From: Vicinamibacterales bacterium
GTDB lineage: Bacteria; Acidobacteriota; Vicinamibacteria; Vicinamibacterales; UBA2999
Reading direction: 5' to 3'
Length of the DNA: 64,000 nucleotides
Assembly: GCA_964202965.1 (NCBI GenBank)
Contig: CAXNKG010000003.1
Span: 23,032-87,031, forward strand
Shown: piece by piece, positions 55,039 to 62,909 of the stretch
Layout of the letters: every line of letters begins with the position of its first letter
Position numbering within the stretch: the first letter of the stretch is position 1
Position numbers and translations under genes: made by a program
Notes under the pieces: model-generated
The model's input: only the letters and a program-made list of their open reading frames with translations
Database searches by the model: none
What the model was told of the DNA's origin: nothing

Positions 55039-55183
55039 ATTTGGCGGAGGGTCTTGAGGCGCCCTGGCGGCGCGCCTGCGCGGCATAGGCATCCGCCGCG
55101 GCACGCGATCCGAGGATCCACCCAATCACGACCCCGAGAATCAGAATGCCCGGGATGTAAATGAAGTGGGCCGCGTTCGGCAT
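55037..55183 (-). CDS. 48-aa single-TM peptide, last ORF of the ccm operon
   Basis: My translation: MPNAAHFIYIPGILILGVVIGWILGSRAAADAYAAQARRQGASRPSAK. The ATG overlaps the upstream stop (TGATG). Below the track cutoff. Confidence 0.4.
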   Translation of the reverse strand: MPNAAHFIYIPGILILGVVIGWILGSRAAADAYAAQARRQGASRPSAK

Positions 55184-55467
55184 CAGGGGCGTCCGCCGCG
55201 CTTCAGATCCGACTCGAGACGCTCCAGTTCGCGCTGCACCGTGGCCATACGGCGGGCCACCGAGACGACGTAGGCGAAGAGCGCCAGCGCCACGAACGAG
55301 TACGCGGCAACCAGGAGCGGCGCGGCCGGGAGCTGATCCTGCGCAGGCAATTCGTCGATCGGGACGAATTCCTCCTGCTGCTGCGGCGCCTGTGCATAGA
55401 GCGCGGCGGAGCCGACGGCTAGTGGAGATATCACGGCCAGCAGAGCGATCAGTCCGAGTGTTCGCAT
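55183..55467 (-). CDS. ccmD: alternative-type CcmD-family membrane protein
   Basis: ATG 55467 (MRTLGLIALLAVISPLAVGSAALYAQ). TM plus basic/coiled tail LLVAAYSFVALALFAYVVSVARRMATVQRELERLE, typical of the alternative CcmD family. It lies directly after ccmC. Confidence 0.55.
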   Translation of the reverse strand: MRTLGLIALLAVISPLAVGSAALYAQAPQQQEEFVPIDELPAQDQLPAAPLLVAAYSFVALALFAYVVSVARRMATVQRELERLESDLKRGGRP

Positions 55468-55468
55468 T

Positions 55469-56125
55469 CTAGTTATCCGCGGAAAGATACAGGGCATCGA
55501 GCCGTGTCCGCTGCTCCTCGAGGCGCACGCGCATCCGCAGCAGCAGCACGAACATCAGCAGGAACGTCACCGCACTGAACCAGAGCGGCAGTCCGAAGGA
55601 GGTCGGCAGCGTCGGCACGACGCTGGTCGTCGGGTGAATCGTCCGCCAGTAGTTCACCGAAATGTAGATGAACGGCACGTTCGCCATCCCGAACATCGCG
55701 AGGCCGGCCCCGAGCTTATCCGACCCTGGCCCGCCGTACTTTCGCAGCAGCATGTAGGCAACCGCGACCATCCATCCCATCAGGCTGGACGTCAGCCGGA
55801 CGTCCCATTGCCACCAGACGCCCCACGCCTTGCGGGCCCACAGAGGACCGGTGATCAGCGTGATGGCTCCGAACAGCACGACCAGCTCCGCCGCAGCCCA
55901 CGCCGTTCGGTCATGGCGCGGGTTGCCCCCGAAGAGATACCGGACGCTCGCAATGCCGCAGACGATGGCCGACAGGAGGAAGACCCAGGCGGACGGAAGA
56001 TGCACGTAGAAGATCTTCTGCACGAGCCCCATCGTGGACTCGTACGGCGCCTGGGCGATGAGCACCGGCGCAACCGCGAACATCAGGCCGCAGACGACCG
56101 CGGCAGGAGTGAACCATGTAGGCAT
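55469..56125 (-). CDS. ccmC: haem exporter / haem lyase subunit CcmC
   Basis: ATG 56125 (MPTWFTPAAVV). WWD-type motif WGVWWQWDVRL and conserved His contexts. The extra N-terminus in track ORF 55469..56185 is translated repeat DNA. Confidence 0.92.
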   Translation of the reverse strand: MPTWFTPAAVVCGLMFAVAPVLIAQAPYESTMGLVQKIFYVHLPSAWVFLLSAIVCGIASVRYLFGGNPRHDRTAWAAAELVVLFGAITLITGPLWARKAWGVWWQWDVRLTSSLMGWMVAVAYMLLRKYGGPGSDKLGAGLAMFGMANVPFIYISVNYWRTIHPTTSVVPTLPTSFGLPLWFSAVTFLLMFVLLLRMRVRLEEQRTRLDALYLSADN

Positions 56126-56126
56126 A

Positions 56127-56204
56127 GGCTTTGGGCTTTGGGCTCTGGGCTTTAGGCTTTGGGCCGGCCAAGGGCCGAGAGCCAAAAGCCTAGCGCCTAG
56201 AGCC
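56127..56204. repeat. inverted pair of heptanucleotide arrays (GGCTTTG units) around a GGCCGGCC centre
   Basis: GGCTTTG GGCTTTG GGCTCTG GGCTTTA GGCTTTG GGCCGGC | CAAGGGC CGAGAGC CAAAAGC CTAGCGC CTAGAGC. It fills the ccmB-ccmC gap up to 1 nt from the ccmC ATG. Confidence 0.85.
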
Positions 56205-56207
56205 CTT

Positions 56208-56885
56208 TCAGTCTGTCATCAACGGCTCGAACGTCCAGAGCGCCAGTGTCACGAACACCACGTCGAAGCATGCCAGTAGCGCCAGCCAGAAGCCGATGAT
56301 GCTGGCGTCCACCTCTGGCTGCAGCAGCGCGGCGGTCGCGCGAACCCCGGCAATGATGACCGGAACGGTGATCGGATACAACAGCACCGGCAGCAGCACG
56401 TCGCGGCTGCGGGCGCGCACGAGCATGGCGGCGAACAGCGTGCCGACGGCCGCGAAGCCAATCGTCCCGAACACCAGGACGATCGCCAGCCAGCCCGGCC
56501 TCTCAAGCAGCGGCGCCTGGAACAGCAGCGCAACGAGCGGCACCAGGATCATCTCTGCGCCGATGAGCAGGACCACGACGCCGAGCAGTTTGCCGACATA
56601 AATCGCAGGCCGGGACGCCGGCGCCAGCAGAAGCGCGCGCAGCGTCTCGGACTGGCGCTCGCGCTCGAACGTCCGGCCCAGCGCCAGCGTCCCCGCAAAC
56701 GCGATCGCGATCCAGAGGATGCCCGCGGCGCCACCCTCCGGCGCGCGTCCCTCCTGGACCAGCGCGAACGCGAAGATCAGGACGCAGGAGACGGCGAAGA
56801 AGAGCATGGTGTACGCGATCTCCAGGCTCCGGACCTCCACCGTGAAGTCCTTGCGCAGCACCAGCCACACGATGCGCCCGAACAC
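56208..56885 (-). CDS. ccmB: haem exporter permease CcmB
   Basis: 225 aa, six TM helices, CcmB-like over the full length. Confidence 0.9.
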   Translation of the reverse strand: MFGRIVWLVLRKDFTVEVRSLEIAYTMLFFAVSCVLIFAFALVQEGRAPEGGAAGILWIAIAFAGTLALGRTFERERQSETLRALLLAPASRPAIYVGKLLGVVVLLIGAEMILVPLVALLFQAPLLERPGWLAIVLVFGTIGFAAVGTLFAAMLVRARSRDVLLPVLLYPITVPVIIAGVRATAALLQPEVDASIIGFWLALLACFDVVFVTLALWTFEPLMTD

Positions 56886-57586
56886 TACGTCGCCATCACT
56901 TTCCGGTACAGCGTCCTGAGCTCTTCAGGCCGGTCCGCCGAGCCCACCATCCGCCCATCCCGCAAAAAGATCGCGTGGTCGAGCAGGTCGCCCGCCAGAT
57001 CGAGGTCGTGCGTGGCGAGCACGATGATCGCGCCGGAATCGCGGAGCGCACGGAGTCGCGCCAGCAGCGCCGACCCGGACGCATCGTCGAGACCCGTGAA
57101 CGGCTCGTCGAGCAGCAGCAGCGTCGGCCGGTGAATCAGCGCGCGCTCCAGCGCCAGCCGCTGGCGCATCCCGCGCGAGAACGTCGACACCGGATCATCA
57201 GCGCGCTCCCCCAGGCCGGCGTGCGCCAGCGCCTCGGTGGCGGCGGCACGCGCATCCGGCACGCTGTAGAGCCCCGCGAAGAACTCCAGGTTCTCCCGCG
57301 CCGTGAGCTCGGGATAGAGGAAGAGGTCGTGGCCGAGCACGCCGATCGACCCACGAAGGGCCGCGCCATCCTGCCGGGGGTCGATCGTGCCGTAGCTGAT
57401 CAGCCCGCTCGTCGGACGAAGCAGGGTCGCCAGCATCGCAAGCATCGTCGACTTCCCTGCTCCGTTGGGACCAAGCAGGCCCAGGATGGTGCGACGGGGG
57501 ACGGTGAATGTGACATGAGAAACGGCCCTGCGGCGGCCGAAGTGGCGGGAGACGTCGTCAACCTGGAGCTCGTCGAAGGCGCTCAC
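56885..57586 (-). CDS. ccmA: haem exporter ATP-binding protein CcmA
   Basis: GTG 57586 overlaps the upstream stop (GTGA). Walker A GPNGAGKST, signature FSRGMRQRL, Walker B LLLLDEP. Confidence 0.9.
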   Translation of the reverse strand: MSAFDELQVDDVSRHFGRRRAVSHVTFTVPRRTILGLLGPNGAGKSTMLAMLATLLRPTSGLISYGTIDPRQDGAALRGSIGVLGHDLFLYPELTARENLEFFAGLYSVPDARAAATEALAHAGLGERADDPVSTFSRGMRQRLALERALIHRPTLLLLDEPFTGLDDASGSALLARLRALRDSGAIIVLATHDLDLAGDLLDHAIFLRDGRMVGSADRPEELRTLYRKVMAT

Positions 57587-58812
57587 GCGGCGACGTCCCT
57601 GCCGCCTCCCCTCGGGCCTGGATCGACATGATCCAGCTCGCCATAAATCTGTTCGAGTTCGGCAACGATGCGCTGGTGCCGCGCGTCGTCGGATCCGGAA
57701 GGCGCCCGTCGCCTCCGTTTGTATTCGAGCCCCGCAAGCTCCGCGAGGAGCTTCTCTCGTCGCGCGGCCAGGCGGCCTGCGGACCCATCCACGCGCGTGC
57801 GCCCGCTGAACCCGAGCCACAGGCCTCCCGCAATGACGAGGCCTGCGATCCCGAGCGCGGTGAACACGGGCGTGCGGCTATGCACCGGCAGGTCGGACAG
57901 CTCCATCGTCAGCGTCGAGCCAGCGGGCATCGCGTTGCCGCTGGCCAGGAGAAACGGCGTGCCCGTTTCTGGCGCCGTCACATCACCCACCGTCGAAAAT
58001 TGCGGCGACGATATCGAGACGGCTCCGACCTTCTCGATGGCGACGCTCAACTGCTCCAGCGCGACAGGCCAGGCCTGTTCAACGGTGATGTCCGCACTGG
58101 TGTACGGAAGCTGAAAGCCGACCTGGACGGACGTGAGCCCTGCGGCGAACGGTCCGACGACGGTCACGACGTCCCCGCTGATCGTCGCGCTGGGCGAAGA
58201 TCCTTCGAGCGTCGACGCGCCCGCCGCGCCCGTCGGGAGCTGCAGGATCAATGGACCACCGATGTCAACGCGCGCACGCGCGTTATTGACGATGTCGAAA
58301 ATGTAGAAGACGCGCAGCGTGTCGTCCCGGAACTCCATGAGGATGCGCGAATTCGGCCCAAGGACGACCGAGCCTTTGACGGGCGGCGCCGCGGCAGCCG
58401 CCGCGTCCTCCTGCGATTTTCGCGCGGCGGCGTCTTTCATCCCCGCCACGAGAATCACGCGGAGACCACCGGTCGCAGGCACCGTGAAGGAGTCGGAGGT
58501 CAGCGCCTCGCCGCCGATCGTGGCGTCGGCGCGCACTTCCGCGCCGGCTGTCAGGCCGGGAAACTCGGCACGGCCCTCCGCATCGGTCGTGGCTGTGCGC
58601 GGCTGTCCGTTGACCGTGAGGCGGACGCTCTGGCCGGTGATGTTGTTGCCGATGGCTTCACGGACGACGCGGACGGTCACCGTGCCTGGAGCGAGATCGC
58701 CCGCCGGGATCGCCCGGCCGTGAATCAACGACGGATCCGGCATGGCAATCTGGGCGAACAGCACCCCAAATCCCAGAAGCCACATCCCACAACCCAAAAC
58801 GACCCGCGTCAC
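57583..58812 (-). CDS. uncharacterised exported protein with CarboxypepD_reg-like N-domain, C-terminal TM anchor and cytoplasmic coiled-coil tail
   Basis: 409 aa. Signal-like N-terminus, GTVTVRVV...GQSVRLTVNGQPRTATTDAEGRAEFPGL beta-sandwich, TM ALGIAGLVIAGGLWLGF, then RREKLLAELAGLEYKRR...IVAELEQIYGELD. GTGA overlaps on both sides. Confidence 0.6.
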   Translation of the reverse strand: MTRVVLGCGMWLLGFGVLFAQIAMPDPSLIHGRAIPAGDLAPGTVTVRVVREAIGNNITGQSVRLTVNGQPRTATTDAEGRAEFPGLTAGAEVRADATIGGEALTSDSFTVPATGGLRVILVAGMKDAAARKSQEDAAAAAAPPVKGSVVLGPNSRILMEFRDDTLRVFYIFDIVNNARARVDIGGPLILQLPTGAAGASTLEGSSPSATISGDVVTVVGPFAAGLTSVQVGFQLPYTSADITVEQAWPVALEQLSVAIEKVGAVSISSPQFSTVGDVTAPETGTPFLLASGNAMPAGSTLTMELSDLPVHSRTPVFTALGIAGLVIAGGLWLGFSGRTRVDGSAGRLAARREKLLAELAGLEYKRRRRAPSGSDDARHQRIVAELEQIYGELDHVDPGPRGGGRDVAA

Positions 58813-59348
58813 GCTTTCACCAGTCCGCCGCCACAGTTCTTACAGAACCGCGCGTCGACTTCGTTCGCGGTCCCGCAGCTCGCGCAGGTCGGAATCGCGG
58901 GCGCGGTGACCCGCCTGGCGAGTTCATCCTCGATCTGCTGCCGATAGCTCGCGCCGGCGTCGAGTTGCCGCAGGAGGCCGGCAGCGCGGAGGCGGAGCCG
59001 CGCGCCCATCTCCGCACAATCCTTCTCCGAGACCTTGCCCATGGCGCGGTCGAATTCCAGATCCTTGATGGCCCGCAGCACGAGCGTCTTCTCGCGCTCG
59101 AGCGCCGCACGGGTACGGCCGCCGAGCATCTGCGGTGCCATGGGATCCTCCGCGCTGCCGAACGGCGCGAACGTGCGCCAGGCCGCGTAACCCACGAGCG
59201 CCGCGCCAAAAATAATCAGGCTGAGGAGGATGACGCCGGCAGGCGTCTCGCCGCGGGACATGAACACGACGACCGTCGCACCGATCAGGCCGGCGAGGGT
59301 GAAGAGCTGCCAGGGTTGAAACGCGTCAGTCGAGGTTTCGGAGCTCAT
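58809..59348 (-). CDS. uncharacterised two-TM protein with coiled coil and C-terminal zinc ribbon
   Basis: ATG 59348 (MSSETSTDAFQPWQLF...), overlapping the end of ccmF-H by 23 nt. Two TM helices, LEREKTLVLRAIKDLEFDRAMGKVSEKD, C-terminal CASCGTANEVDARFCKNCG. The rest of track ORF 58809..59738 is out-of-frame overlap. Confidence 0.6.
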   Translation of the reverse strand: MSSETSTDAFQPWQLFTLAGLIGATVVVFMSRGETPAGVILLSLIIFGAALVGYAAWRTFAPFGSAEDPMAPQMLGGRTRAALEREKTLVLRAIKDLEFDRAMGKVSEKDCAEMGARLRLRAAGLLRQLDAGASYRQQIEDELARRVTAPAIPTCASCGTANEVDARFCKNCGGGLVKA

Positions 59349-61788
59349 CGTCGAGACGGGCGCTCGTGGTCGCGTCCATTCCGGCGTCGCCGGCGGCCGC
59401 CGGAACCGCGCGCGTCGACCAGCGGCGCGCAGTGACGAAGATGCCGGCGAGGGCGGCAAGCGCGACGAGATACGGCACAATCCAGGCGAGGCGATTGAAC
59501 CCGCGATCAATCGGCGCGGCCAGGATGGCCTGGCTCCCGAACTCCGCGGCGAACGCGTCCCGAACCTCGTCATAGCCCTTGCCTTCCGCGAGGAAGGCTT
59601 CGAGCCGCGCCGCCTGCTGATCGTAGTGCCCGCAATTCGGGCGCATCGGGCAGCTGCCCATCGGCGACTGGCAGCCGCAGGTGCACATGATGTCACCCTC
59701 GAGCTGCCGATGCAGCTCGCTGCGCTGGTTCGGGGCAACGGTTTCGGTGGTTTGCGCGATCACCGACGCCGGCCACAGGAGCAGCGAGAACAGCAGCAGC
59801 GATGACGTGACGGCATTCGACGGCACCTTCGCCAGCGCGAATCCGAGCGCCGCTTCCGGCAGGAGCGCGATGCCGGTGCCGAGCGCAAGAATGCCGAACC
59901 CGGCCCACACCCAGTTCACCAGGGGGTTGACGACAATCTCCATGCTGGCGCTCTGCTCCTGCAGGTCGAACGCGGGCAGGACGAGGTAGAGGTCTTCAGA
60001 GAACGTGCGGCGGATCGCCACCTCGGTGGTGGGCTGATCCTCATGCTTCCGGAAATACCACTTCGCCGGATACATCTTCCCGATCTCTTCCCCGTCGCGG
60101 AACACGGTGGTGTGCGCCGTGATCATCTGCTTCTGGCCGTCGTCGGTGACGCGGACGGTGTCGAGGCGGACGGTGAAGTCGCCGACCTGGGCCTGCTGCC
60201 CGGGTTTGAGCAGTAACTGCTCGTCCTGCTTGAATCCCTCACCCGCGAAGCCCAGGAACATCAGAACGATGCCGATATGGACGATGTAGCCGCCGTACCG
60301 GCGCTTGTTGCGTGCCACGAGGCCGATGAGCGCCGTGAAGACGTCCGTGCCAGTGGCGTCCTGGCGAACCCGGGCGCCGCGCCAGAACTCCTGGCCGATC
60401 GTTCCCACGACGAAGCCGCAGAGTGCAAAGCAGATCCCAGAGGTCCAGACGCGCACGCCGAGCGCGACGAGCGCCCCGCCGACGACGAGCGCGGTCGCCA
60501 CGGGAATGAGGAACTGCTGCCGCAGATTCGTCACCGTCGTCTTCCGCCACGCGAGCAGCGGGCCCACGCCCGTGAGCACGAGCAGGATGAGGCCGACCGG
60601 GAGCATCCACTTGTTGAAGAACGGCGGACCCACGGTCAGCCGTTCGCCCGTGACTGCCTCACTGATCGTCGGAAAGAGCGTCCCGAACGCGATGAAAAAC
60701 GCCGAGAAGAGCAGGATCCAGTTATTGGCGAGAAAGGCGGCTTCGCGCGACATCCACGAATCGAGCTCGTTCCGCGCCCGCAGCAGCGGCAGCCGGTAGA
60801 TGACGAACCCGAAACTGACGGTCAGGATGGTCACCATGAAGATGATGAACATCCGGGCAAGCTCGGGGTCTTCGCCAAACGCATGGACCGACTGCACGAT
60901 TCCCGACCGCGTCAGGAACGTGCCGAAGATCGTCAGGAAGAACGTGAGGATGACGAGCGTGACGTTCCAGACGCGCAGCATGCCGCGCTGCTCCTGCACG
61001 CGCACCGAATGCAGGAACGCGGTCGCAGTGAACCACGGCAGCAATCCCGCGTTCTCGACCGGGTCCCAGCCCCAGTAGCCGCCCCATCCGAGCTCTTCGT
61101 ACGCCCAGATCATCCCGAGCCCGAGTCCGACCGACAGGAACAGCCACGAGATCATCGTCCAGCGGCGGACGGCGCGCAGCCACGAGTCGTCCAGATACCC
61201 GGTGATGAGCGCCGCCATGCCGAACGCGAACGGAATCGTCAGGCCGACGAACCCCGTGTACATGGTGGGCGGGTGAATCACCATGTAGAAGTTCTGCAGC
61301 AGCGGGCTGAGGCCGGCGCCGTCGGTGGGGCTCTCGGTCAGGTACGTCGAGAACGGGTTGTTGTGGACGATCATCAGGAACAGGAAGAACATCTGAACCG
61401 TCGAGATGACCGCCACCACATACGGGATCAATTCCCTGTGGCGTTCCCTGTTCACGAAGACCGCGGCGCTGCCGAAGCAGGACAGCAGGAACACCCAGAA
61501 CATGATCGAGCCGTCGAGCCCGCCCCAGTACGACGTGATCTTGAAGAAGAGCGGCTGGACCGAATCCGAATAGCGCTGGACGTACTTGATCGAATAGTCG
61601 CCGACGACGAAGGCGTAGACGATGATGGCTGACGCGGCCGTCATGATGGCCGCAACGAAATAGAACGCCCCGATACCGCTTTCAATCAGTCGTGTGGAGC
61701 GCCGGCGTGCGCCCGCGACCGATGCCGCGAAGGCATACGCGCACACCACGAACGCGCTGAGAAGAAGGTAGTAGCCGAGGGATGCCAT
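59326..61788 (-). CDS. ccmF: cytochrome c haem lyase CcmF fused in frame to a CcmH-like domain
   Basis: 820 aa. CcmF core with WGGYWGWDPVENA. The last ~165 aa have a signal-like segment SSLLLFSLLLWPASVIAQ, IMCTCGCQSPMGSCPMRPNCG, LAEGKGYDEVRDAFAAEFGSQAILAAP and a TM helix, which is the CcmH/NrfF-like layout. Confidence 0.9.
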   Translation of the reverse strand: MASLGYYLLLSAFVVCAYAFAASVAGARRRSTRLIESGIGAFYFVAAIMTAASAIIVYAFVVGDYSIKYVQRYSDSVQPLFFKITSYWGGLDGSIMFWVFLLSCFGSAAVFVNRERHRELIPYVVAVISTVQMFFLFLMIVHNNPFSTYLTESPTDGAGLSPLLQNFYMVIHPPTMYTGFVGLTIPFAFGMAALITGYLDDSWLRAVRRWTMISWLFLSVGLGLGMIWAYEELGWGGYWGWDPVENAGLLPWFTATAFLHSVRVQEQRGMLRVWNVTLVILTFFLTIFGTFLTRSGIVQSVHAFGEDPELARMFIIFMVTILTVSFGFVIYRLPLLRARNELDSWMSREAAFLANNWILLFSAFFIAFGTLFPTISEAVTGERLTVGPPFFNKWMLPVGLILLVLTGVGPLLAWRKTTVTNLRQQFLIPVATALVVGGALVALGVRVWTSGICFALCGFVVGTIGQEFWRGARVRQDATGTDVFTALIGLVARNKRRYGGYIVHIGIVLMFLGFAGEGFKQDEQLLLKPGQQAQVGDFTVRLDTVRVTDDGQKQMITAHTTVFRDGEEIGKMYPAKWYFRKHEDQPTTEVAIRRTFSEDLYLVLPAFDLQEQSASMEIVVNPLVNWVWAGFGILALGTGIALLPEAALGFALAKVPSNAVTSSLLLFSLLLWPASVIAQTTETVAPNQRSELHRQLEGDIMCTCGCQSPMGSCPMRPNCGHYDQQAARLEAFLAEGKGYDEVRDAFAAEFGSQAILAAPIDRGFNRLAWIVPYLVALAALAGIFVTARRWSTRAVPAAAGDAGMDATTSARLDDELRNLD

Positions 61789-61800
61789 GTCAGCCCTCGG

Positions 61801-62316
61801 CTAGTACGACGTACTAGGGGTTCCTGAAGTTCCTAGGGTTCCTGAGGTTCCTAGGGTTCCTGAGGTTCCTAGGGTTCCTGAGGTTCCTAGGGTTCCTGGG
61901 GTTCCTGGAGTGCCTGAAGTTCCTGGGGTGCCGCCGACCTGGGGCTCGTATTTCGACGGGCACTTCGCGGTCATGCTGGTCGCGTGGAAGCCGTCCTCCG
62001 CGAGCGTGCCCTGAAGCACCACCTCAGACTCGTTCTTGAACGTGTCGGGAACGACGCCCGTATACGTGGCGCGTACCACGTGCCCCTTGCTGTGCATCTC
62101 GAAGCTGTAGTCGAGGGAGTCGCGCTTGCGGCGGATGTCCCTGGCGTAGCCGTGAATCTGGAGCGGCTTGCCGTACCAGGGTGCCGGCTGGACCATCACT
62201 TCCTCGACGTGCTTGTAGTACTGCGCGCTCTCGCCGAGCGTGGAATAGAGCAGCCCCCCGAAGGCGAGGGTCAGCACCACGCCGGTGATCCCGATTTTCG
62301 CGGCTTTGTGACTCAT
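61801..62316 (-). CDS. ccmE: haem chaperone CcmE, CxxxY variant with Gly-Thr-X repeat tail
   Basis: ATG 62316 ([23 protein letters not shown]). OB-fold core. MTAKCPSKY aligns where canonical CcmE has the HxxxY haem-binding motif. The tail is [43 protein letters not shown]. Confidence 0.88.
61818..61934. repeat. 13 tandem 9-bp units (GGTTCCTNR) inside the ccmE 3' end
   Basis: The 18-bp unit GGTTCCTGAGGTTCCTAG occurs about 4 times, flanked by degenerate 9-mers. It shares the GGTTCC core with the array at 35044..35129. Confidence 0.9.
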
Positions 62317-62345
62317 AGGTAAGGACTTCTGCCCCTCAGGTGCCC

Positions 62346-62909
62346 TCAGGATACCAATATTCCCGCGTTCTTGCACAGGTCGTAGACAAGGCCAACCGGC
62401 AGCCCGACCACATTCGTATAGGGGCCGGAAATCGTCGTCACAAAGCGCGAGGCCAGCCCCTGGATCGCATACGCGCCCGCCTTGTCCGAGGGCTCGCCAG
62501 ACGCCACGTACCAGTCGATGTCCCCGTCCGTGAGCGGCGCGAAGTGGACGGTGGTGGATGCGATCTCCGTCTGGAGCGCCCCAAACGCGAGGCAGACCCC
62601 CGTCAACACCACGTGCGCTCGCCCCGACAGCATCCGCAGCATCCGCTTCGCGTCCGCTGCGTCAGCCGGCTTTCCGAGAATGTCGTCCCCGCAGACGACC
62701 ACCGTATCGGCCCCGAGCACCGGCCGCCCCGCTGCCCTGTCAATCACCGCGCGTGCCTTGGCTTCGGCGAGCCGCGCGACGTAGGCGTCCGCAGCTTCGC
62801 CGTCGCGCCGCGTCTCGTCGACGTCCGCCGTCAGCACGTCGAACGCGATGCCCGCCGCGCGGAGCAGCTCGGCTCGTCTGGGTGACGCCGACGCCAGGAC
62901 TAGCCGCAC
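62346..62909 (-). CDS. maf: Maf-family nucleoside triphosphate pyrophosphatase
   Basis: [29 protein letters not shown]. Confidence 0.9.

Follow-up and report, generated by a model that had tools for sequence, protein, structure and literature searches.

A conserved gene pair in the System I operon of Vicinamibacteria: a candidate CcmI-like accessory subunit of cytochrome c maturation

Cytochrome c maturation by System I is commonly regarded as the work of a fixed set of proteins, CcmA to CcmI. In the plasmid-borne ccmFGHI clusters of Rhizobium, Phaeobacter, Martelella and Roseibium, which were reached via ccmF matches and supplied four real CcmI sequences for comparison, ccmI comes after ccmH; the CcmH protein of E. 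coli includes the CcmI-like part as a fusion. How apocytochromes are handled in variant systems with a Cys-type CcmE and without CcmI is an open question, as is whether the missing CcmH and CcmI functions are replaced by non-orthologous proteins (PMC9084895). The DNA analysed here (the window; 64,000 nt from a Vicinamibacterales bacterium, contig CAXNKG010000003.1 of assembly GCA_964202965.1, positions 23,032–87,031) carries a tightly packed minus-strand System I operon with the gene order maf, ccmE, ccmF-ccmH fusion, ORF A, ORF B, ccmA, ccmB, ccmC and ccmD; the two open reading frames (ORFs) A and B are the subject of this study. Vicinamibacteria are among the most abundant soil Acidobacteria. 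The haem-binding motif of CcmE in the window is CPSKY, a Cys-type CxxxY variant, and a CcmE of the CxxxY kind (here KCPSKY) is shared with the variant System I of archaea and Desulfovibrio. The locus differs from that system in that CcmH is present (CcmF-fused and Cys-rich), CcmD is of an alternative type and two proteins have been added.

ORF A and ORF B are genuine genes, conserved and under constraint, and they lay in this ccm operon in all of the loci examined. We propose, with confidence that is evenly balanced, that they are the two halves of one lineage-specific accessory subunit with four transmembrane (TM) helices, which acts in the System I cytochrome c maturation of Vicinamibacteria and fills the niche of CcmI. 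The system would then be a System I with a new, lineage-specific accessory subunit. A literature search found no paper describing these proteins.

Relatives were collected in two scans, one of which used one genome per GTDB species (best 80 loci) and the other metagenomes, centred on the most divergent relative (best 80 loci); 20–64 kb of sequence was covered per genome. In addition, the best 150 cluster representatives from an ORF A profile search were viewed. All 80 species loci belong to the Acidobacteriota, mostly to the Vicinamibacterales, and the order (maf)-ccmE-ccmFH-A-B-ccmA-ccmB-ccmC-ccmD was found in every one of them (80/80), as far as the contigs reach. In the metagenome loci with enough flanking sequence, ccmFH lay upstream in 34 of 34 and ccmA downstream in 46 of 46, and these loci are all of the Vicinamibacteria type. 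No relative of A or B outside a ccm context was seen in the 150 best representatives or in either set of 80 best loci. ORF B falls to 33 % identity while CcmFH keeps 60–85 %, and the mean distances were 1.03 for B, 1.05 for the CcmH domain, 0.79 for A and 0.34 for CcmF.

The genes are also joined by overlaps. In the window the ATG of ORF A sits 23 nt within the end of ccmF-ccmH, and both the A/B and the B/ccmA junctions are 4 nt GTGA overlaps; the overlap of the B stop with the ccmA start recurs in 68 of 140 loci, and most of the remaining junctions are within 20 nt. The coordinates and peptides given for both ORFs in a preliminary description of this DNA were correct, and the translational coupling to the ccm genes that it reported is borne out by these three overlaps. 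Comparative evidence gives good support to the role in cytochrome c maturation that it proposed, namely the invariant slot, the conserved overlaps and the A-B fusions in the same slot that are described below, and the co-occurrence with ccm genes extends beyond this genome to all 80 species loci and the informative metagenome loci. An association with CxxxY-type CcmE, raised there as well, was found in 99 of 100 related loci (KCPSKY), all within one class, so that it is inseparable from shared ancestry.

Both families are large; A comprises over 5600 clusters at 50 % identity, and B over 1000 at 90 %. The profile search of 1.84 billion cluster representatives gave 5640 relatives of ORF A at E ≤ 1e-3 and 212 at E ≤ 1e-30; its 5844 database relatives are all unnamed or called 'zinc ribbon protein', and the relatives of ORF B, at least 1094, are all 'hypothetical'. 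Labelled relatives of A and B come from Acidobacteria or Vicinamibacterales. Four records titled 'Bifidobacteriaceae' (L021, L022, L027, L060) and one titled 'Woeseiaceae' (L041) carry the Vicinamibacteria type of operon with CcmFH 67–78 % identical to that of the window, and these titles are probably taxonomic mislabels. In Pfam and NCBIfam scans no curated family covered ORF A or ORF B beyond the zinc ribbon of A.

That A and B act together is best supported by their fusion. Several representatives of 580–665 amino acids (aa) contain A followed directly by B in one protein, and a search with the fused relative P0255 returned more than 100 fused clusters labelled Vicinamibacterales. The fused gene occupies the same slot (ccmE-ccmFH-[A-B]-ccmA-ccmB); among 130 loci with adequate coverage, 12 were fused (about 9 %; proteins of 590–620 aa) and 118 split. 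Gene-calling artefacts were considered as a source of the fusions and rejected, since over 100 independent clusters and 12 loci show continuous ORFs. Because A and B are fused into a single polypeptide in sister lineages, they are regarded as functioning as one unit. The zinc ribbon of the A part runs directly into a hydrophobic segment (TM3) equal to the signal peptide of B in the window, and the A-x-A|Q signal-peptidase motif is retained, which suggests that the fused protein may be cut after TM3. Fusion is possible only if the A helices and ribbon are cytoplasmic and the beta domains of B periplasmic, and this fixes the topology. We infer an N-terminus on the inside, TM1 and TM2, cytoplasmic helices (usually with the ribbon) and TM3, followed by the periplasmic double beta-sandwich, TM4 and a cytoplasmic helical hairpin.

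The two hydrophobic segments, the quoted helix and the four-Cys zinc ribbon reported earlier for the 179 aa of ORF A are all present; the hydrophobic segments lie at about aa 12–33 and 33–58, with a short loop between them. The helices equivalent to the TM hairpin (Table 1) span residues 19–37 and 43–71 in the AlphaFold2 (AF2) model of a fused relative. PWQLFTLAGL...VVF is invariant in the family, and LEFD is retained in most of the 150 cluster representatives. The ribbon, with four Cys in two knuckles, matched Pfam DUF7577 with 29.8 bits (cut-off 28) and Zn_Ribbon_1 with 22.3 bits, under the cut-off of 25; it is the only part of either ORF that reaches a curated family cut-off, and zinc ribbons were the only matches of the ORF A profile in the PDB. 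The first knuckle is CxC in many relatives (L029, L010, L024 and others) and the ribbon is wholly missing in some fused forms (L050, L077, L114). Since it is variable or missing in some relatives, the ribbon is not essential to the core function. The N-terminus of ORF A (MSSETSTD; window 59326–59348) is dual-coded with the CcmF-H C-terminus (DDELRNLD) in the 23 nt overlap, and MSSxTST is kept even where the genes of relatives do not overlap.

The likeness to CcmI is found in the second TM helix of A and the region behind it. Fused relatives were compared with 18,950 NCBIfam models, among them TIGR03142, which represents the N-terminal domain of CcmI and has a curated cut-off of 29.3 bits. This was the third most frequent match, after two zinc-ribbon models; it was found in 23 of 50 fused relatives at E ≤ 10, with a best E of 0.0012 and with 7.5–13.2 bits in the listed examples. 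In all four of the matches inspected, A residues about 47–120/135 were aligned with profile positions 3/4–70/83, i.e. TM2 of A and the following helix with TM1 and the cytoplasmic loop of CcmI. When the A family was aligned with the N-termini of the four CcmI proteins by using hhalign, a score of 18.8 was obtained (P = 0.0099), which was equalled by 2 of 200 column-permuted controls; the register places TM on TM and LEFDrAMGKVSe on ELeRDxexGLISe, the latter belonging to the leucine-zipper-like helical loop of CcmI (...QLxELxRDxxxGLIS...). E. coli CcmH is without the cytoplasmic motif and was not useful for comparison. The preliminary description had called the helix behind the TM segment loosely reminiscent of the cytoplasmic loop of CcmI-type proteins; the TIGR03142 matches and the hhalign result lend this weak independent support, with all profile scores below the cut-off.

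The position of the genes agrees with that of ccmI. A-B directly follows the CcmH domain in the window, its gene lying directly 3' of ccmH, and a tblastn search of the window, and of the sequence up to 10 kb from the operon in about 165 loci, turned up no CcmI homologue. As A-B takes the usual place of CcmI in every genome examined, it is probably a new CcmI-like accessory subunit. The likeness to CcmI/CycH may further extend to a TM helix with a cytoplasmic helix behind it, whose core reads L-x-E-L-E-x-D-x-x-x-G-[LKx]-[IV]-S-E, and, in fused A-B from TM2 onwards, to the succession of TM, cytoplasmic loop, TM and periplasmic domain. On the other hand, the periplasmic part of A-B consists of two beta-sandwich domains and has no tetratricopeptide repeats (TPR), there are additional TM helices at the N-terminus and, with a cytoplasmic hairpin, at the C-terminus, the loop holds a zinc ribbon, two genes encode it in the window, and the profile scores remain under the family cut-off.

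The anatomy proposed earlier for ORF B, namely a signal peptide, a beta-sandwich, a second beta domain, a TM helix and cytoplasmic helices, was recovered in the AF2 model and by hydropathy. The model has a mean predicted local distance difference test (pLDDT) value of 79.6, mostly 83–92 in the periplasmic region, and places the TM helix at aa 314–336; its first domain has a predicted transthyretin/CarboxypepD_reg-like fold; CarboxypepD_reg (PF13620) matched aa 44–117 with 23.4 bits (E = 7.6e-5), below the cut-off of 32.3, and some database relatives carry a precomputed PF13620 match. Cys8 in the signal peptide is the sole cysteine, so that mature B has none. Across 237 sequences the invariant or nearly invariant positions are mostly Gly, Pro and core residues, together with TD..GRA.F in domain 1 and P25-D26 of the MPDP motif right behind the signal peptide; the His of LP(x)H (aa 308–311) beside TM4 is present in 222 of the 237. 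The database gene call begins at Met10 (400 aa). The GTG start that overlaps the ORF A stop was preferred because relatives keep the longer N-terminus with a basic residue.

The C-terminus of B ends in -AA (often VAA, LAA or AAA) in 88 of 140 loci, including loci without an overlap with the ccmA start. The GGGxD codons before -AA double as the Shine–Dalgarno sequence of ccmA (window 57583–57625; L004–L173). As the conservation of GGGxDVAA is partly due to this overlapping Shine–Dalgarno sequence and GTG, it was not used as functional evidence.

The model of ORF B from the window and, independently, that of P0255 were compared with the PDB by using Foldseek; other fused relatives of the P0255 kind are about 40 % identical to ORF B. 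In both runs the top hits, from yeast and human entries, were one and the same subunit chain of the eukaryotic oligosaccharyltransferase (6ezn_A, 6c26_1, 7oci_A, 8agb_E, 8pn9_E, 6s7o_E, 8b6l_O; E = 3e-9 to 1e-7; top E for the window model 4e-9), followed by a group of N-terminal beta domains of M1 aminopeptidases at about 1e-5. Judged by the naming of the entries and by length, we take the top chains to be Ost1/ribophorin I. TM-scores against these chains were 0.2–0.31 and identities 8–14 %, and the match is read as a likeness of predicted architecture, with homology not established. As is predicted for B, Ost1/ribophorin I has a signal peptide, a pair of beta-rich domains on the trans side of the membrane, one TM helix and a cytosolic helical tail; the two differ in kingdom and pathway. 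Binding of substrate peptides has been reported for Ost1, whose two beta-rich domains are lumenal, and it is a non-catalytic subunit of a membrane enzyme that acts on newly translocated chains (PMC7226087). Both Ost1 and A-B would be accessory subunits of membrane enzymes whose substrates are unfolded chains, newly translocated and modified at a short motif (PMC7226087).

An internal likeness concerns the helices that follow the TM segments of A and B, for which an (E/R)REK-LL helix shared by both ORFs had been reported. The string is literally present in both. Between the two ORFs of the window, however, the similarity is not above chance: BLASTP gave E = 31, and hhalign gave a probability of 1.7 % with full profiles and P = 0.17, in the expected register, with trimmed profiles. 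In the fused lineage the B motif is fuller (REK..ELVrLEqQRRaG.iDaaRYaeRR.aLiaQLERvYrdLD), retains a G-x-[VI]-D...Y core and has the A counterpart REK..LRsIKELEFD.AMgKvs..DyeeM.aRLRsRAvrLl.qLD. In that lineage hhalign of the helices only scored 16.8 (P = 0.006), which 5 of 200 column-permuted controls equalled, and TM plus helix scored 18.5 (P = 0.0098; 29 % identity over 45 columns), which 2 of 150 block-permuted controls equalled, in the register noted earlier. The shared motif is probably real at about the 1 % level, and is suggestive rather than proven; its use as a common interaction module is a hypothesis at P ≈ 0.01.

The motif belongs to a common helix-Gly-helix pattern (GvpG-like, SHOCT-like). 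The B tail, G-x-[VI]-D-x-x-R-Y...L..QLE, resembles the C-terminal half of the Pfam GvpG profile (PF05120), which it matched in 47 of 50 fused relatives (best E = 3e-5; listed scores 12–21 bits, below the cut-off of 30.6). Small TM proteins with a SHOCT motif share the layout of a TM helix followed by helix-G-E-I-D-E-x-E-F. All of these GvpG and SHOCT scores are sub-cut-off, and the motif is short and generic and carries no functional information. Such a small TM-SHOCT protein, with a layout 'TM then ...RRRFANGEIDEEEF...' that resembles the post-TM modules of A and B, is encoded upstream of ccmF and after a two-component system in plasmid-borne ccmFGHI clusters of Phaeobacter, Martelella and Dinoroseobacter (L086:3130-3435, L088:1821-2135, L090:3130-3435); its gene is immediately 5' of ccmF in Phaeobacter and Dinoroseobacter, and one hypothetical gene lies between them in Martelella.

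In the proposed accessory subunit, TM2 of the A part and the cytoplasmic helix-Gly-helix would correspond to the membrane and cytoplasmic-loop module by which CcmI joins CcmF-CcmH, and the periplasmic beta-sandwich domains of B would stand in for the TPR domain of CcmI. B would be a membrane-anchored platform that holds unfolded apocytochrome c and/or holo-CcmE beside the active site of CcmF-H, and the two similar post-TM helical modules would form, together with the zinc ribbon, a cytoplasmic bundle keeping the halves together. More speculatively, and in our estimate possible rather than probable, A-B might be a structurally new receptor for apocytochrome (or holo-CcmE), in which a CcmI-type membrane core is retained and TPR are swapped for a double beta-sandwich of the Ost1/ribophorin I kind, which brings along a TM anchor and a cytoplasmic bundle. 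Such a receptor would yield a CcmF-H-A-B haem lyase unique to Vicinamibacteria, and bacteria and eukaryotes would then have arrived at the same design of accessory subunit, one that offers unfolded polypeptides, newly translocated, to a modifying enzyme within the membrane. If the proposal of an accessory subunit is correct, the part of the haem lyase that handles the substrate can be replaced in evolution, here by a universally conserved, operon-embedded, non-TPR subunit, and two large families named 'hypothetical' or 'zinc ribbon' acquire a role. A-B offers a defined and directly testable candidate.

Several points weigh against the proposal. None of the relatives reaches the TIGR03142 cut-off, and ORF A of the window itself gave no match to this model at E ≤ 1. 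Pfam scans found no TPR family, and the AF2 models show an all-beta periplasmic region. The likeness to CcmI consists of a TM helix and a short, common helix-Gly-helix motif and could be convergent, and the match to Ost1, at the TM-scores given above, may reflect a generic architecture. A canonical ccmI may lie elsewhere in the genomes, beyond the sequence covered in each. The pair is seen in one class only, so that the conserved synteny is in part shared ancestry. Split ccm operons were sought in metagenomes via the most divergent fusion and none was found, which leaves an association with the CcmFH half inseparable from one with the CcmABCD half. The proposed function of A and B is drawn from comparison.

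The main rival explanation, which we think unlikely, makes A and B accessory to the CcmABCD haem export/release module and not to the haem lyase. Their cytoplasmic helices and ribbon would dock on or regulate the CcmA ATPase, and the membrane-proximal face of B (LPxH, MPDP) would assist the haem loading or release of the Cys-type CcmE. This would suit the position of B immediately 5' of ccmA and overlapping its start, the large cytoplasmic share of A and B, on which side CcmA is the sole Ccm partner, the conservation of the TM4-adjacent His and of MPDP behind the signal peptide, and the presence of both a variant CcmE and an alternative CcmD in the system. The CcmI resemblance and the slot after ccmH point to the lyase side instead, and the solved CcmABCD complexes are reported to need no such subunit (PMC9616876, PMC10457321). 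Mirror-tree rate covariation was analysed as partial r, with Maf as the unrelated neighbour control. A and B covaried most with each other (0.31); B gave 0.17–0.21 with CcmE, CcmF, CcmH, CcmB and CcmC but 0.03 with CcmA and 0.01 with Maf, a weak argument against this rival, and the values of A were indistinguishable from the control (0.19 with Maf, equal to that with CcmF). The covariation, which leans slightly to the lyase side, is not strong enough to choose between that and the ABC side.

Less likely are a regulatory or quality-control role and a mere hitch-hiking of the genes. Little probability is given to A and B being an assembly, quality-control or regulatory factor for Ccm complexes and not a subunit of the catalytic cycle, for example a scaffold to a cytoplasmic partner via the zinc ribbon, or a stoichiometry factor controlled by proteolysis. 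It is not obvious what the ribbon and the long cytoplasmic helices would do in a reaction on the periplasmic side, the cytosolic domain of ribophorin I contacts the ribosome, and B frequently ends in -AA even where no start overlap forces it, an end reminiscent of ssrA-type degrons; yet the ribbon is dispensable in three fused forms, the -AA end is missing in about a third of the loci, and no regulator or protease gene is linked. Slightly less probable still is that A and B are envelope proteins unrelated to cytochrome maturation, which were captured in the ancestor of the class and kept by operon inertia. Their restriction to one class, which could make the synteny historical, the absence of any curated family tying A or B to Ccm above threshold and the equal covariation of A with Maf and CcmF would all fit; set against this are the absence of any exception among over 125 informative loci although identity falls to 33 %, the start/stop overlaps maintained on both sides, and repeated weak matches that land on CcmI, one of 18,950 families. 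The suggestion that B replaces the thiol-reducing CcmG/DsbE is contradicted by the sequence and is given almost no credence, since mature B has no Cys, none is conserved in the periplasmic part of its relatives, and its fold is a beta-sandwich and not that of thioredoxin. It could draw on the scarcity of CcmG: tblastn with E. coli and Phaeobacter CcmG found nothing in the window, and about 165 loci, searched up to 10 kb from the operon, gave a single CcmG homologue, a thioredoxin-like match in L046. An anti-sigma-factor-like reading of A and B was rejected, there being no sigma gene and the domain order being wrong.

The features of the operon are collected in Table 1. The ccmF-ccmH fusion was identified by matches to Pfam CcmF_C (3.9e-54), Cytochrom_C_asm (7.7e-35) and CcmH (2.8e-9) and to TIGR00353 (4.6e-124).

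Table 1. Coordinates (window numbering) of the ccm genes, of ORF A and ORF B and of their parts.
Feature	Position	Strand	Description
ccmE	61801..62376	-	Haem chaperone, CxxxY variant (KCPSKY); Pfam CcmE E = 4.6e-20
ccmF-ccmH fusion	59326..61788	-	820 aa; haem lyase core and Cys-rich CcmH domain (aa 667-812)
ORF A	58809..59348	-	179 aa; first half of accessory pair
ORF A transmembrane hairpin	59175..59312	-	TM1 about aa 13-31, TM2 about aa 36-58; hydropathy scan
ORF A post-TM cytoplasmic helix-Gly-helix	58959..59105	-	aa 82-130, ALEREK...LEFDRAMGKVS...RQLD; CcmI-loop-like motif
ORF A zinc ribbon	58830..58886	-	aa 155-173, CxxC...CxxC (CASC...CKNC)
ORF B	57583..58812	-	409 aa; second half of accessory pair
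ORF B signal peptide	58753..58812	-	aa 1-20, predicted cleavage LFA|Q; hydropathy; equals TM3 in fused relatives
ORF B periplasmic region	57895..58713	-	Beta-sandwich aa 34-123, linker helix, second beta domain aa 156-306
ORF B C-terminal TM helix	57802..57873	-	aa 314-337; AF2 model and hydropathy
ORF B cytoplasmic helical hairpin	57625..57786	-	aa 343-396, RREKLLAELAGLE...ELEQIYGELD; AF2 helices 343-368, 373-396
ccmA	56885..57586	-	ABC (ATP-binding cassette) ATPase; GTG start overlaps ORF B stop as GTGA
ccmB	56208..56885	-	Pfam CcmB on equivalent gene of relatives; tblastn synteny
ccmC	55469..56185	-	Start codon uncertain; Cytochrom_C_asm on equivalent gene in L001
Alternative-type ccmD	55183..55497	-	TIGR04391 CcmD_alt_fam 31.5 bits, cut-off 24

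The actual start of ccmE is probably the Met at about 62316. The C-terminus of CcmE (window 61801–61930) is a collagen-like tail of GT[PSL] repeats, which is absent in the CcmE proteins of about 135–140 aa of relatives (L001, L084). In the CcmH domain of the window (59326–59830) C-T-C-G-C...C...C replaces the canonical LRCxxC; most relatives (L004–L173) have C-x-C-G-x-C...E-C-x-C, i.e. a CxxC with an extra Cys two residues upstream and a further CxC pair. In one relative an ORF of 58 aa is called directly 3' of ccmD (L001:13781-13957).

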